Shown piece by piece: positions 104-4,346 of a DNA stretch of 4,346 bases. The notes beneath the pieces are model-generated. The model saw only the letters and a list, made by a program, of their open reading frames with translations. It did not search any database and was not told where the DNA came from. The DNA is from a virus. Taxonomy: Duplodnaviria; Heunggongvirae; Uroviricota; Caudoviricetes. The position numbers and the translations under genes were made by a program. Numbering within the stretch: the first letter of the stretch is position 1; each line of letters starts with the position of its first letter. Location: IMG/VR virus record IMGVR_UViG_2681813320_000022; one strand, written 5' to 3'.

Positions 104-355
104 TCAAGTAAGATGACGTCTTGGTCTCGCTGATGCCTGGCGCTCAATCCAGCGATCAATTTCTTCCAGGTTGTAAAAGCATGGACTGTTATCCCATGGC
201 ATACCGTCATGAGCGACATGCTTATATTCCCTTCCTTCCATAAACGATTTTTCCCGGGCCTTTTTTAACGTACCTTTTTTTATTCCTTTCAGCGCAATTA
301 ACTGCTCTTCGGATACCCATTTGCCGGGAGAGACAATCATGATTACTTCGCTCAT
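104..355 (-). CDS. xis: Excisionase-like small DNA-binding protein (Xis / recombination directionality factor family)
   Basis: 83-codon ORF ending in TGA. From the sixth residue (MIVSPGKWVSEEQL...) the protein aligns by eye with lambda Xis: Trp at position 8, basic helix region, and a GREY motif (MEGREYKHVA versus lambda KDGREYLFHE). It lies directly downstream of the exonuclease gene on the same strand and upstream of a probable int start, the canonical exo-xis-int order. The true start may be the internal ATG at 340..338; both candidate starts have weak purine-rich SD. Confidence 0.6.
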   Translation of the reverse strand: MSEVIMIVSPGKWVSEEQLIALKGIKKGTLKKAREKSFMEGREYKHVAHDGMPWDNSPCFYNLEEIDRWIERQASARPRRHLT

Positions 356-427: not shown

Positions 428-2461
428 TTAAGAATCAGCCTGACTCGGGATCAGTTTTTGCCAGATAACTGAAACGTATTTTGCCTGGTAACGGGCGTCA
501 TCAAGTGCATTATGGCGCTCACCTTCGAATGGAATAGCCGTTCTGGCATCGAAGTCTATGGCTTTCCCCAGCTCAACGATTGTGCGTACATCGCGATCGT
601 TGTAGTAACGCCACGGGCAGGGGATCCCCTGCCGTTCGTATGAACGGCGCAAAATCGTGTTGTCGAAGTTGGCTCCATTTCCCCAAACCTGAACAAAAAA
701 TTCACCGGAGTTTTCGTCGATAAATTCTCGCAATTGTAACAGTGCATCATCTAACGGGATTTCATCGGTCATAATGGCAGATTGCGCTTCGCGTGATTGC
801 TTAAGCCACCATTTAATGGTGTCCCGATCAATGACTCCGCCAGCAGTTTCCAGATCGATAGTCTTACTAAATTCCGGTCCCATATCTCCGGTTTGCGGAT
901 CGAAAAATATTGCACCTATTGAGATGATCGGGGCATCAGGATTTTTTCCCATGGTTTCAAGGTCGATCATTAGATGGTCACACGTCCTGCTGGTGGATGT
1001 GATTTCGTGATGACTGTTCACCTTAATTGGGTGATCTGCCGTCTCGCCAGTTTCATTATCGCTATTGTGATGCTGATTGCCGCCAGTGTTCTCCTTGTGT
1101 GGATGTTCAGCGCCTTCCATTTCCTCCGGATCATCTTCCTGAACTTCAACCTGATACTCTTCATCGAATGTTTCTTGGTATGTTGCGTCGCCCATCACCG
1201 CGCCACAATCAGGGCAGTTGCCGCCGCCGGTCTGACCGCAGGCGGTGCAGACTTTTTCCACTTCCTGTTGCGCTACTGGTTCAGGCTGTTTCGTTTCTGG
1301 CTCGTTTTGTAACGCATTTGGACTGTTTTGTTCCGCTTTTTGGTAGTTCCGTTCCGATTCATGCTGGTTCTGGTTCACAGAATCGCGGGTCTGGAGCCCC
1401 TTAACCCATTTCGGATCATTCGGGTCACTAATCCCTTCAACAAATTCACCACGTGATGCAGCAAGCAACTTATCGGCGTCAGGCTGGCTGATATTGGCTG
1501 CCTGCATAATTTTGTTTACTTCGTCAGCGGTAACTTTTATCGGCTCTGGTTGTTCTGAATCTTCAGCGGTATCTACATTTTGCGGTAAGCCCGTGTATGT
1601 GCCATTTTTTCGGGCAAAATATTCTTCTTTTGTGATTTCAGTGGCGCCAGCAGCCAGTGCCTTATCCAGACCAGAGAGTTTGTTTGCGCGACCGTATTTT
1701 TCTCCGTCCTTATCTGCGAAGAGGAAATAGAACGGCCCCTCACGCTCTACAGATGGTTCAGCTTCCGGCGCGGTTTCATTTTTTGGGATATCAGATACCT
1801 CAGTTTCCACTGCATCAGTTTGTGTTTCTGATGACTGGAGAACATCAACAGTGCCCAGGTCTGTTTCTTCATTCTCAAACACGCCCTTTGTCGTCAGGTA
1901 TTCGCAGATATATTTGTTCAGTGCTACGGGATCTTTGTGAATGTCGATCGGACGCTCACGGACAAGGCCAAAAATAGTTTGGCGGTCGTAGCGAAGGGCA
2001 TCAGGCTGTTTGCGCATTGATGCCGAGATACGCTTCCAGTCTTCGCGGTCGTTGTCGATAACTTCTTTTTTTGCCCAGCGATGGATGCTGCCGTCAATGT
2101 TTCCGGCATCCACATCACTAGGCCAGAGAGCGTAGGCCAGTTCGTCATCCAGTGTTTTCCATGTCTGCTTGTATTCGCGATGAATGGCAGCAATGACCGG
2201 GCTGATTTTTCCTGTTGAATTTTCAGTGTACTGTTGATTGGCTCTGGCGCGGGCGAGATCAACAACAGACGTGTATTTTCCGGTTTCCTTGCGTTCACCT
2301 TCGCGACGTTTTTTCCAGATGCGCATCTCTGCCTGAATTTCGGGCCATTTAGCACCAGGAATACATTTATGCTTAACCCACCCAATGGCGTGCAACTTAA
2401 GCTCCGGATACGGGTTATTCCCCTCTGAACAGGCGCGTAAGGACTGGCAAAACGCCCGCAA
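428..2461 (-). CDS. Prophage exonuclease: C-terminal DnaQ-like DEDDh 3'-5' exonuclease domain, central CxxC-x7-CxxC zinc ribbon, acidic/His-rich linker, N-terminal domain of unknown function
   Basis: Uninterrupted 677-codon frame ending in TAA at 430..428. All DEDDh motifs are present in order: Exo I MIDLET (D500/E502, nt 956..964), Exo II VWGNGANFD (D600, nt 662..664), Exo III HNALDD (H650 nt 512..514, D655 nt 497..499). Zinc ribbon CTACGQTGGGNCPDCG at nt 1205..1249. The annotated start at 2461 is TTG; the real start may be internal (TTG at 2395 with GGAG SD, or ATG at 2326), so the 5' end is uncertain. Confidence 0.8.
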   Translation of the reverse strand: MRAFCQSLRACSEGNNPYPELKLHAIGWVKHKCIPGAKWPEIQAEMRIWKKRREGERKETGKYTSVVDLARARANQQYTENSTGKISPVIAAIHREYKQTWKTLDDELAYALWPSDVDAGNIDGSIHRWAKKEVIDNDREDWKRISASMRKQPDALRYDRQTIFGLVRERPIDIHKDPVALNKYICEYLTTKGVFENEETDLGTVDVLQSSETQTDAVETEVSDIPKNETAPEAEPSVEREGPFYFLFADKDGEKYGRANKLSGLDKALAAGATEITKEEYFARKNGTYTGLPQNVDTAEDSEQPEPIKVTADEVNKIMQAANISQPDADKLLAASRGEFVEGISDPNDPKWVKGLQTRDSVNQNQHESERNYQKAEQNSPNALQNEPETKQPEPVAQQEVEKVCTACGQTGGGNCPDCGAVMGDATYQETFDEEYQVEVQEDDPEEMEGAEHPHKENTGGNQHHNSDNETGETADHPIKVNSHHEITSTSRTCDHLMIDLETMGKNPDAPIISIGAIFFDPQTGDMGPEFSKTIDLETAGGVIDRDTIKWWLKQSREAQSAIMTDEIPLDDALLQLREFIDENSGEFFVQVWGNGANFDNTILRRSYERQGIPCPWRYYNDRDVRTIVELGKAIDFDARTAIPFEGERHNALDDARYQAKYVSVIWQKLIPSQADS

Positions 2462-2480
2462 AAAACTCTCGAGGGCAAAG

Positions 2481-2651
2481 GTGAAGAAACCTGCTGTGGT
2501 TGATCCGGACCTTATCTGGTCATCACCTGACGGAGAAATACGTCGCTACGACAGTCGCCTAAACATAATCTGTCGCGAGTGCCGGAAGAGCGAAGTTATG
2601 CAGCGCATACTGGCTTTCTATCAGGGTAATTTTCAGGACGTGGCGCAGTGA
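2481..2651 (+). CDS. Small hypothetical protein (57 aa from GTG; frame is open back to ATG 2385, which would give 88 aa)
   Basis: GTG at 2481 is preceded by GAGGG (2471..2475) with a 5-nt spacer. The TGA stop (2649..2651) overlaps the GTG start of the next ORF (GTGA at 2648..2651), a translational-coupling arrangement. The ATG at 2385 lacks an SD and would overlap the 5' end of the exo frame on the opposite strand. Confidence 0.4.
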   Translation: MKKPAVVDPDLIWSSPDGEIRRYDSRLNIICRECRKSEVMQRILAFYQGNFQDVAQ

Positions 2652-3004
2652 GTGCACCGGCAACCATTCTTGATATGTGCTGTGGCAGCCGCATGTTCTG
2701 GTTCGATAAGTCTGACGAACGGGCGATATTCAGCGATATCAGAAAAGAAGGATACACATTACGCAATGGGAGACGCTTGATTATCAGCCCTGACATTATC
2801 GCAGATTTTCGTGCATTATCATTTGCAGACGCATCTTTTTCGATGGTTGTATTAGACCCTCCGCATCTTGAGAGTGTTGGTGATAACGCCTGGATGGGAA
2901 AGAAATATGGACGGCTGAATAAAGATGCCTGGCGTGATGATTCGCGACAGAGATTTAAAGAAGCCTTTCGGGTGTTGAGGCCGCACGGCGTTCTGATTTT
3001 TTAA
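2648..3004 (+). CDS. SAM-dependent DNA methyltransferase-like protein (motif I then motif IV, gamma-like order), short and probably truncated or interrupted
   Basis: 118-codon ORF with motif I-like ILDMCCGS (nt about 2669..2692), catalytic motif IV DPPH (nt 2855..2866) about 60 aa later, and a RVLRPHGVLIF strand typical of the Rossmann methyltransferase fold. It stops at TAA 3002..3004, after which the same frame is open for 29 more codons to TAA 3092..3094. No C-terminal target-recognition region is present. Confidence 0.55.
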   Translation: MSAPATILDMCCGSRMFWFDKSDERAIFSDIRKEGYTLRNGRRLIISPDIIADFRALSFADASFSMVVLDPPHLESVGDNAWMGKKYGRLNKDAWRDDSRQRFKEAFRVLRPHGVLIF

Positions 3005-3237
3005 TGGAATGAAACGCAAATACCGGTAAGCCAGATTCTGGCACTGACAGACAGAAAACCTGTTATCTGTCAACGAACAGGGAAAAAACGATAAAACCCA
3101 CTGGATTATTTTTATGAAAGAGGCATCCAGTGAGTAGATTCGTAAGGCTACAGATACGTATATCTGAATAATTAAATTCAGTTCTGTAAATAAAATTTAA
3201 TCCTTAACCGGATGGATTTCTGCACCCTCAGAACATC

Positions 3238-3266
3238 AGGAGGCCGCCCGAAAGGGCGGTAGTGAA
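3238..3266 (+). promoter_or_regulatory. Structured ribosome-binding site: AGGAGG, then a 6-bp GC stem with GAAA tetraloop, then 7 nt to the ATG
   Basis: AGGAGG at 3238..3243; stem CCGCCC (3244..3249) / GGGCGG (3254..3259) with GAAA loop (3250..3253); ATG at 3267. Linear SD-to-ATG spacing is 23 nt; with the hairpin folded it is about 7 nt. Confidence 0.45.
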
Positions 3267-3377
3267 ATGCGAAAGTTCAAAATTATTATTGAAACGGGAA
3301 TAGCTGGTGGAGATTTTGAGGATGTATTCGAAGTGGACGATGACGCAACACCTGAGGAAATTCATGACGGAGCATAA
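3267..3377 (+). CDS. Small acidic protein, 36 aa (MRKFKIIIETGIAGGDFEDVFEVDDDATPEEIHDGA)
   Basis: ATG start served by the structured RBS above; TAA at 3375..3377. Eleven of 36 residues are Asp/Glu. The frame stays open for 23 further codons after the TAA, up to TGA 3447..3449. Confidence 0.4.
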   Translation: MRKFKIIIETGIAGGDFEDVFEVDDDATPEEIHDGA

Positions 3378-3441
3378 GAAATTTTCTTTAACTACTGCAA
3401 TTACTCATACCACGAAATAAAAGACGATGAGGAAGAACAAA

Positions 3442-3618
3442 GTGGCTGATTTTTGTTCAGCTAAATATAACATCAGTTTTGAAGAGCGGGATGAACTATT
3501 AATGGACTATGGTGAGTTACGCGGTGGAAGTGCTGCTGATGTCGAATCCTAGCGTGATGACTATGAAGCGGGAAAAACTCCGGTCGAAGCATATTGTGAT
3601 GAGTGGGGCGATGAATGA
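3442..3618 (+). pseudogene. Small acidic ORF with an in-frame TAG at 3550..3552: 36 codons from GTG 3442 (41 from ATG 3427), then 22 open codons to a TGA that overlaps the next start
   Basis: GTG 3442 is preceded by GAGGAAG with a 6-nt spacer. After the TAG the frame has no stop and no internal start for 22 codons and ends in an ATGA overlap with the ATG at 3615. This is either a nonsense-interrupted gene or a 36-41 aa gene followed by a chance open frame. Confidence 0.3.
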
Positions 3619-3902
3619 GCGAGATTAATTATCAGGAAGGGCATGAAACGGCGGGGCAAGCAAAACCAGTGGCATGGCGATATCGCTACGTGAAAAAAGG
3701 CGTTACGGACTTTCAGGGGAAGTAGTGGTCTGGTGACTGGAAATATGTACCGAAAAAAGAGGATTGTAACGACAGGCCGAACTATCAAATTCAGGCCTTA
3801 TTCACTGCCTCACCAGTCCCAGTTACATCAGAAGAACTGGTTAAAGCTGTGCACTTTTATGAACAACTAAAACGCGAAAATCCACCAACATCCGGCAACT
3901 AG
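3615..3902 (+). pseudogene. Hypothetical protein gene with an in-frame amber at 3723..3725 (36 codons, TAG, then 58 open codons to TAG 3900..3902)
   Basis: ATG 3615 overlaps the upstream TGA (ATGA). The 58 codons after the TAG have no in-frame ATG, GTG or TTG. They read as ordinary mixed protein (WSGDWKYVPKKEDCNDRPNYQIQALF...), whereas the alternative frame ORF at 3745..3870 is Lys/Arg-rich as expected for an out-of-frame read. Confidence 0.4.
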
Positions 3903-4145
3903 ATTAATGGATTAACTATGTCGGTTAAACGACCAGCCAACTGAAAAAGCGGAAACCTGATTACAGGTTGCCAGATAAGGCAATGAGCTACCTGGCGCGG
4001 AACGGACTGATAAGTATGGGGAATGTTTTACGATGAACCTTTAGACTAAAGAGTTTGTAACGCTATGTAAGTGATTTTTTCTGGTTTAGATATTTATATG
4101 TCCGGCCAAATTGAGGTGTGTTTAAATGTAATTGCACATTGATTG

Positions 4146-4152
4146 TAGGAGG
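4146..4152 (+). promoter_or_regulatory. Strong Shine-Dalgarno (TAGGAGG) for the ORF starting at 4157
   Basis: TAGGAGG at 4146..4152, 4-nt spacer, ATG at 4157..4159. Confidence 0.5.
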
Positions 4153-4156
4153 AATA

Positions 4157-4252
4157 ATGAAAAACGCATTGCAGTTTTTGTTTGTTGCGTTCTGGTTGTT
4201 CGCATCATGTATGCCCATCATCTTCACAGCGGTAATGACTCCAACTTATTGA
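4157..4252 (+). pseudogene. 5' fragment of a gene encoding a protein with a hydrophobic N-terminus (MKNALQFLFVAFWLFASCMPIIFTA), disrupted by IS1 insertion
   Basis: Strong SD plus ATG. The first 24-25 codons (4157..4230) are host or prophage sequence; from 4231 the frame continues into the IS1 terminal inverted repeat and stops at TGA 4250..4252 inside IS1, so the native 3' portion is displaced. Confidence 0.45.
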
Positions 4253-4346
4253 TAGTGTTTTATGTTCAGATAATGCCCGATGACTTTGTCATGCAGCTCC
4301 ACCGATTTTGAGAACGACAGCGACTTCCGTCCCAGCCGTGCCAGGT
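4231..4346 (-). mobile_element. IS1 insertion sequence, right-end inverted repeat plus 3' part of insB (partial; continues beyond the window)
   Basis: 4231..4253 GGTAATGACTCCAACTTATTGAT is the IS1 terminal inverted repeat. The following 93 nt match, from memory of the well-known IS1 sequence, the reverse complement of the IS1 right end (...CTGCATGACAAAGTCATCGGGCATTATCTGAACATAAAACACTATCAATAAGTTGGAGTCATTACC). Confidence 0.9.
4246..4346 (-). CDS. insB: IS1 transposase InsB, C-terminal end (partial; 5' part lies outside the window)
   Basis: The minus-strand reading ends ...[29 protein letters not shown] with its TAA stop at 4248..4246 inside the terminal inverted repeat, as in canonical IS1. Confidence 0.8.

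Follow-up and report, generated by a model that had tools for sequence, protein, structure and literature searches.

A small phage methyltransferase gene interrupted by a nonsense mutation and a frameshift in a degraded Qin-type prophage of Escherichia coli

The open reading frame (ORF) at positions 2648 to 3004 of the window, the whole 4,346-nucleotide stretch of DNA that was analyzed, is very probably the 5' two-thirds of a phage methyltransferase pseudogene that was inactivated by a nonsense mutation and a frameshift and now lies in a decaying prophage remnant. The ancestor would have been a class I SAM-dependent methyltransferase of ~160 aa with a DPPH catalytic motif, encoded by a gene that lambdoid and many other phages have in their early or replication module and that here stands directly after DUF977/LygF, translationally coupled to it. 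Inactivation came about through two independent lesions, a change of codon 119 from AAA to TAA and a +1 G that displaces the conserved C-terminal strand from the frame. A deletion took the immunity and replication region and presumably, with these, the normal early promoter upstream of the methyltransferase gene; an IS1 insertion, as well as stops and frameshifts in the genes that follow, are further signs of decay in the same prophage. The fragment that remains is probably non-functional. A decayed orphan phage methyltransferase had been one of the readings offered in the first-pass annotation, and it is the one borne out here, in that the homologues are 156 to 175 aa long and the window carries a nonsense mutation and a frameshift relative to them.

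The open reading frame and its protein family

The ORF listing of the window gives a GTG start and a product of 118 aa. The TGA of an upstream ORF (2385 to 2651) at positions 2649 to 2651 overlaps the methyltransferase GTG at 2648 to 2650, forming GTGA, and a plausible Shine-Dalgarno sequence (AGGA, 2634 to 2637) lies ahead of the coupled start. A motif I-like sequence, ILDMCCGS, occupies residues 7 to 14, DPPH occupies residues 70 to 73, and Asp30 is also present; when the ORF was checked for the class I fold, both the glycine-rich SAM-binding loop after strand 1 and the acidic residue ending strand 2 were found. Every statement of the earlier sequence description (the coordinates, the GTGA overlap, motif I, DPPH, the TAA at 3002 to 3004, and the 29 codons that follow it) proved accurate.

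Profile searches assigned the ORF to PHROG 954 ("DNA methyltransferase") with E = 6.7e-58 over profile positions 52 to 165 of 229, while an intact relative spans positions 47 to 206. Pfam returned weak Methyltransf_11/25 matches to the ORF, and its product is identical to WP_001310834.1, annotated as "class I SAM-dependent methyltransferase" in NZ_CP144928. When relatives were searched for with the repaired window sequence, 6,691 database proteins matched at E <= 1e-10. Because of this number and the strength of the PHROG 954 match, the homology is not due to chance. Judged from its sequence, the window ORF is a member of PHROG 954 by descent and not an intact member, and the length comparison that had been proposed alongside the profile search agrees, intact homologues being 156 to 175 aa long rather than 118 aa.

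Intact proteins among the matches are typically 156 to 170 aa long, or about 248 aa where an extra C-terminal part is present, and E. coli proteins of 161 to 162 aa are 83 to 88% identical. When the read-through sequence was compared with phage genomes by tblastn, one match covered at least 80% of the query in 244 of the 254 matching records, and the rows listed typically run from residue 7 to residue 146, well past the stop. WP_001275735.1 (157 aa), WP_001275732.1 (164 aa), and the 175-aa ORF of Stx2c phage EH0430 (...LIFKWNETQ...GKGDKTHWIIFMKEAASEQD, a stretch also given as ...GVLIFKWNETQIPVRQILALTDRKPVIGQRTGKGDKTHWIIFMKEAASEQD) belong to the same PHROG 954 family as the window ORF. Syntenic alleles of 157 and 164 aa in E. 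coli prophages are 85 to 90% identical to the window at the DNA level and have the same GTGA, a 4-nt overlap with a full-length DUF977 gene. Like the window, the intact alleles of Rac/Qin-type prophages lie directly after DUF977 and have motif I, Asp30, and DPPH. Unlike them, the window has TAA in place of the Lys119 codon, an additional G, translation of 118 of about 160 codons, and extra substitutions at conserved positions.

Conservation was assessed in an alignment of 60 diverse full-length relatives, in which D30, R32, P48, D70-P71-P72-H73, E105, R108, W120, and P138 are invariant and conservation reaches at least 90% at K119, T150, F155, and K157. The intact relative P0001 of E. coli, 88% identical to the repaired window sequence, was modeled with AF2 at a mean pLDDT of 95.2 and a pTM of 0.89. 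The model places strand 5 at residues 110 to 121, a short helix at 127 to 131, strand 6 at 138 to 144, and strand 7 at 150 to 156. On this model the window product, which ends at residue 118, would be without the end of strand 5 and without strands 6 and 7, and its seven-stranded sheet would be incomplete. The 118-aa product, if made at all, would keep the SAM-binding half, yet it is most likely unfolded and inactive because these parts of the sheet are missing.

The family has thousands of members, found in phages of Proteobacteria, Firmicutes, Actinobacteria, and Bacteroidetes and even in one haloarchaeal virus. Its core of ~153 aa ends at the C-terminus and has no recognition domain; many members have an N-terminal extension of ~60 aa, in some cases Cys-rich and zinc-finger-like, and some enterobacterial members have a C-terminal extension of ~90 aa. 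Small size alone is no proof of decay, because the intact relatives are also small. Similarly, the first-pass annotation was correct that the ORF has no target-recognition region of the kind found at the C-terminus of M.TaqI-type enzymes, but this is not a sign of decay, since the intact relatives with the ~153-aa core likewise have none. Some related phages lack the methyltransferase gene, and in these DUF977 is followed directly by the downstream genes; the gene therefore behaves as an optional cassette.

The description of the motifs as being in gamma-class order held only in part. Motif I does precede motif IV, but the fold search brought the family no nearer to gamma-class enzymes than to RNA, protein, or small-molecule methyltransferases (in Foldseek, M.TaqI had rank 35 and TM 0.50). 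M.TaqI (a gamma-class DNA N6-adenine methyltransferase), the tRNA/rRNA m2G enzymes Trm11, TrmN, and RsmC, and N6AMT1/KMT9 share with the window family the class I Rossmann-like fold and the order of motif I before motif IV, and these N-methyltransferases, with (D/N)PP(Y/F/W/H) and among the fold-search matches, also share DPP-x after strand 4. Motif IV of the gamma class (M.TaqI type) is (N/D)PP(Y/F/W), whereas the window family has DPPH, with an invariant His instead of the aromatic residue. DPPH after strand 4 resembles the (D/N)PP(Y/F) of enzymes that methylate exocyclic or amide nitrogens. The intact ancestor may have methylated nucleic acid; the label "DNA methyltransferase" in phage records is an annotation only, and candidate targets of the family may include RNA, a modified base, protein, or, if a partner assists, DNA.

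Neither the ORF nor an intact relative, when scanned, matched a dedicated Pfam or NCBIfam family (NCBIfam matches were below threshold, and Pfam matches were weak and generic); among the 60 aligned members, Methyltransf_11 matched weakly in 49 and N6_N4_Mtase in 9. Searches of the PDB by sequence, with the repaired protein and with the 60-member profile, returned nothing close, the best match, over the SAM-binding half, being PH0226 (E = 2.8e-5). Searches of the literature for orphan prophage methyltransferases, LygF, Qin pseudogenes, and EHEC methylomes yielded nothing on the family, and the phrase "DPPH motif," the sole literature query aimed at the family itself, gave 0 matches. PamA of an S. 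aureus phage was considered as a precedent for the family and rejected as an unrelated, Dam-type NPPY enzyme acting on GATC.

Two lesions and their distribution among alleles

Alignment of the DNA with intact alleles revealed an A-to-T change at position 3002, at which the window reads CTG ATT TTT TAA TGG and the intact sequence CTG ATT TTT AAA TGG, converting Lys119 to a stop. The same-frame translation of the 29 codons after this TAA (3005 to 3091) is WNETQIPVSQILALTDRKPVICQRTGKKR, and the frame stays open there because the stretch continues the same ancestral gene. The second lesion, a +1 G located 78 nt beyond the first, is seen where the window has ACAGGGAAAAAACGAT and the intact allele L008 has ACAGGAAAAAACGAT; because of this insertion, the original frame closes at 3092. 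Deletion of one G yields a frame of 162 codons in which the TAA at codon 119 is the sole interruption and which ends, as restored, in ...QRTGKNDKTHWIIFMKEASSE followed by a stop. From the restored tail and the ancestral TAG, the gene remnant therefore extends from 2648 to 3137. The conserved residues K119, W120, P138, T150, F155, and K157 do not share one open frame in the window, K119 having become the stop and T150 to K157 lying in another frame.

Both lesions are also present in PhiR42_1 (a phage record, from ECOR13), which is 99.8% identical, and in C6W75_RS11095 of NZ_CP027462, which is 98.8% identical and resembles the window in its locus and its decayed downstream genes as well. Unlike the window, the NZ_CP027462 allele has two fewer amino acid changes, with R76 and L99 retained, and its prophage keeps the immunity/replication region (cI/Cro-like genes and a replication gene) and a full-length DUF977 gene. 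Because a prophage carrying both lesions keeps this region, the inactivation of the methyltransferase gene is older than the large deletion in the window. PGAP describes the 98.8% allele as [quoted passage not shown] and treats the window allele as an ordinary CDS (WP_001310834.1). Pseudogene status is in this sense already known, having been flagged by the annotation pipeline in the sister allele.

Among 5,426 complete E. coli genomes, the segment from 2648 to 3140 was matched in 382 records at >=99% identity and in 98 at 95 to 99% (480 at >=95%), with 422 further records at 80 to 95%. Direct inspection covered one or a few alleles per identity band, and the three inspected in the lowest band (L008, L009, and L010) are intact.

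The codon changes of the window lineage were also examined, these being defined as codons at which it differs from each of the four intact alleles of E. coli or Stx phages. There are 15 nonsynonymous and 12 synonymous changes, compared with 11 and 27 summed over the four intact lineages (Fisher p = 0.04, or 0.07 once the stop codon is left out). The window has F69L and G102R at family-conserved positions and, further, P58S, R76S, and L99S, both R76S and L99S being later than the divergence from the 98.8% allele. Between the window and intact alleles, pairwise dN/dS is still low (0.13 to 0.19) because most of the divergence predates inactivation. Taken as a sign of relaxed constraint, these codon changes would be supportive but weak.

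The prophage remnant around the gene

The window is 99.9 to 100% identical to many E. coli chromosomes. In NZ_CP144928 it adjoins ynfC-speG-ynfB-ynfA-rspA-rspB, with ydfW, flxA, ydfV, relBE, hokD, and rem on the other side, a neighborhood that we take to be the site of the Qin prophage on the K-12 map. Adjacent to rspB, just outside the window, is an integrase gene. The methyltransferase gene sits beside rspB in a degraded lambdoid prophage of the Qin type, and Table 1 collects the features of this prophage within the window.

TABLE 1 Features of the prophage remnant and of the interrupted methyltransferase gene in the window
Feature	Coordinates	Strand	Basis or remark
Prophage excisionase (DUF1233)	104..355	-	PF06806, E = 1.6e-31
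3'-5' exonuclease (Rv2179c-like domain), N-terminus truncated by deletion	428..2419	-	PF16473, E = 1.9e-67; PGAP "missing N-terminus"
C-terminal DUF977 (LygF / "Ren-like") remnant	2400..2651	+	Pfam DUF977, E = 6.1e-15, positions 62-134/134; PGAP "missing N-terminus"
Deletion junction, microhomology CTCCGG(A/C)TAC	2402..2411	.	Three-way alignment
5' fragment of small phage class I SAM-dependent methyltransferase gene	2648..3004	+	118 codons + TAA
Lesion 1, nonsense AAA -> TAA, codon 119	3002..3004	+	AAA/AAG in intact E. coli and Stx-phage alleles
Ancestral coding sequence in original frame, 29 codons then TAA at 3092-3094	3005..3094	+	Aligns to residues 120-146 of intact homologues
Lesion 2, +1 frameshift, GG -> GGG	3080..3082	+	Gap in DNA alignment
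Ancestral C-terminus GKNDKTHWIIFMKEASSE, then TAG at 3135-3137	3081..3137	+	Now readable only in the +1 frame
DUF7167 pseudogene, AAA -> TAA at 3375-3377	3267..3449	+	PGAP "internal stop"; intact in phage vB_EcoS-640R1
Unannotated gene, TGG -> TAG at 3550-3552	3427-3617		Alignment to L012
Hypothetical-protein pseudogene, frameshifted, internal stop	3615..4036	+	PGAP notes; alignment to L012
IS1 end, inserted in prophage remnant	4231..4346	.	IS1A transposase annotated there in NZ_CP144928

At the deletion junction, the 5' portion of the exonuclease gene (- strand) is fused to the middle of DUF977 (+ strand). In the three-way alignment, the window tracks the exonuclease gene of phage Evi to ...GCTCCGGATAC and, from CTCCGGCTACGGGTTATT... 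on, the DUF977/LygF gene of PhiR42_1. The "upstream small ORF" of the first-pass annotation (2385 to 2651, 88 codons) is a chimera and not a small gene, because the junction lies within it; it takes its ATG and first few codons from the antisense strand of the exonuclease gene, and the remainder encodes the last 80-odd residues of DUF977. PhiR42_1 and other alleles have a full DUF977 gene of 140 aa with the same 4-nt overlap with the methyltransferase gene. Compared with the complete order in PhiR42_1 and L007, the window is missing the early-left genes along with the immunity region and the replication genes. Gene order in these two suggests that the deletion also took the immunity region that presumably drives the rightward operon.

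A consensus scan of the + strand from 1800 to 2648, in itself a weak test, found no promoter-like site ahead of the ORF, and a promoter/terminator scan of the window gave nothing beyond chance. A terminator-like hairpin at 2970 to 2993 has a T-run that overlaps the TAA-bearing T-run; it lies inside the ancestral coding sequence, and the count is within the shuffled expectation. An Rfam scan of the window found no RNA element. Genomes without the IS1 insertion match the window up to position 4230 only.

Alternative readings and meaning

Observations that count against a pseudogene include the CDS call of PGAP, the 118-codon frame that is open in very many E. coli genomes, and the still low pairwise dN/dS. 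At least 1,000 contigs carry the exact 118-aa sequence (UniRef A0A024L1U3), whose 90%-identity cluster has 385 members, most of those listed being 118 aa long. The open frame could mean that the protein is retained, for example as a SAM-binding or regulatory fragment, or to pair with, or act as a dominant-negative subunit of, a related methyltransferase from another prophage; common ancestry could account for it just as well, a young lesion being passed on in a vertically inherited remnant. Retention would fit with the Shine-Dalgarno sequence and coupled GTG start and with the intact motif I, Asp30, and DPPH; moreover, some E. coli genomes have up to five matching places, and the fragment and an intact paralogue may therefore co-occur. 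However, the invariant W120 and P138 are missing along with the end of strand 5 and strands 6 and 7, residues conserved in the family have changed since divergence (F69L, G102R, P58S, R76S, and L99S), and a second lesion has built up downstream, as expected once function is lost. In addition, the upstream early region is deleted, the consensus scan between 1800 and 2648 (+) gave no promoter-like site, and the adjacent genes are decaying too. We consider retention very improbable. The SAM-binding regulator envisaged in the first-pass annotation is structurally unlikely because the fragment is without part of strand 5 and without strands 6 and 7, and what speaks for it comes down to its commonness and its CDS annotation. 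Similarly improbable is the joint proposition that the 118-aa fragment is kept as a SAM-binding or regulatory polypeptide and that the intact family is a minimal amino-methyltransferase acting on something other than a specific DNA sequence.

Recoding, in which the TAA at 3002 to 3004 would be read through to produce a longer, active enzyme, had likewise been raised as a minimal methyltransferase completed by readthrough. The 29 family-homologous sense codons that follow the stop in frame would be compatible with it, but the stop is conserved in no homologue inspected, the intact alleles having a Lys codon (AAA or AAG) at a position that is at least 90% conserved, and the +1 G spoils the frame downstream. 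Readthrough alone would give 147 aa that end in an incorrect ...GKKR tail and lack the conserved KTHWxxFxK strand. It cannot rebuild the protein because the conserved C-terminus survives only in the +1 frame, and a second event, a frameshift at the GGG of 3080 to 3082, would be needed; nor does Rfam find an element in the window. TAA followed by T (UAA then U) is a strong stop in E. coli, the context in which termination is most efficient. Readthrough is accordingly a reading to which we give almost no credence. It is also extremely unlikely that the stop and the frameshift are sequencing or assembly errors in an intact gene. Two metagenome-derived proteins in ENA (P0006 and P0284) do read GAA or other local sequence at codon 119, but they come from very short contigs (876 and 1,490 bp) and keep the frameshifted GKKR tail, P0006 being 99% identical to the query, and they were rejected as intact alleles on account of that frameshift. 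Identical lesions recur in hundreds of complete genomes, each sequenced independently, and two alleles 1.2% apart share them.

We conclude that the window ORF is neither a new kind of enzyme nor a readthrough gene but an ordinary pseudogene. The anti-restriction role suggested earlier for orphan methyltransferases of prophage early regions does not apply to a dead copy. The biological weight of the finding is small, in that it adds one more inactivated gene of a cryptic prophage. For annotation, WP_001310834.1 / A0A024L1U3 is distributed as though the enzyme were complete; of two near-identical alleles, one is called a CDS and the other a pseudogene; and in E. coli, methylome or orphan-methyltransferase surveys would arrive at too high a number if they included the protein. 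The parent family is widespread in phages and very small, and an intact member could merit study.

Deletion junction upstream of the methyltransferase and gene decay downstream of it

A large prophage-internal deletion has removed the early-left, immunity and replication regions in their entirety. At its junction, which is marked by a short microhomology, the 5' part of the exonuclease gene, which runs leftward, is fused to the middle of the DUF977 gene, which runs rightward. In 148 complete E. coli genomes, matches extend over 80% or more of the window, a count based on coverage alone.

On the other side of the methyltransferase pseudogene, dead genes fill the entire 1.4-kb region. When phage vB_EcoS-640R1 was used as the reference, nonsense mutations were found in both small genes that follow the methyltransferase. 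The A-to-T change in the DUF7167 gene is identical in kind to the methyltransferase's own AAA-to-TAA change.

Coordinates of features flanking the methyltransferase pseudogene (window positions unless stated; L012 is the comparison locus in phage vB_EcoS-640R1)
Feature	Position	Detail	Reference
Deletion junction	2402-2411	microhomology of ~10 bp, CTCCGG(A/C)TAC	
Stable GC hairpin	3238-3269	GCCGCCC-GAAA-GGGCGGU	
DUF7167 gene, nonsense mutation	3375-3377	AAA to TAA	vs vB_EcoS-640R1
Unannotated gene after DUF7167, nonsense mutation	3550-3552	TGG to TAG	vs vB_EcoS-640R1
Gene	3615-4036	annotated as frameshifted, internal stop	
Small hydrophobic ORF	4157-4230	start MKNALQFLFVAFWLFASCMPIIFTA; IS1 at 4231 cuts after codon 25	
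Intact version of small hydrophobic ORF	L012 2137-2316	59 aa	vB_EcoS-640R1

A hairpin and a truncated ORF

The GC hairpin is part of a fold with an energy of -17.4 kcal/mol (z = -2.4). On one side of it is an AGGAGG that resembles a Shine-Dalgarno sequence, and on the other is the DUF7167 pseudogene's ATG at 3267. The hairpin may either draw these two close to each other or have a terminator-like role. Nearer the IS1 insertion, the small hydrophobic ORF has AGGAGG, a strong Shine-Dalgarno sequence, ahead of it at 4147-4152, and its intact version looks like a two-helix membrane peptide. The vB_EcoS-640R1 record leaves this peptide unannotated on its own strand and has a minus-strand "hornerin" ORF at that place instead.

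Annotation of the methyltransferase alleles and an N-terminal extension in intact relatives

The alleles in NZ_CP144928 (locus L001, 8568-8924) and NZ_CP027462 (locus L007, 3046-3490) carry the identical stop and the identical frameshift. PGAP treats them inconsistently: the former is called a normal CDS (WP_001310834.1), and the latter a pseudogene, "frameshifted; internal stop."

Many intact members of the methyltransferase family, including P0125 and P0128, have an N-terminal extension of ~60 aa, which is absent from enterobacterial members. In P0128 the extension contains CPMC...CPRKH, a zinc-finger-like sequence that may be the missing substrate-binding part.
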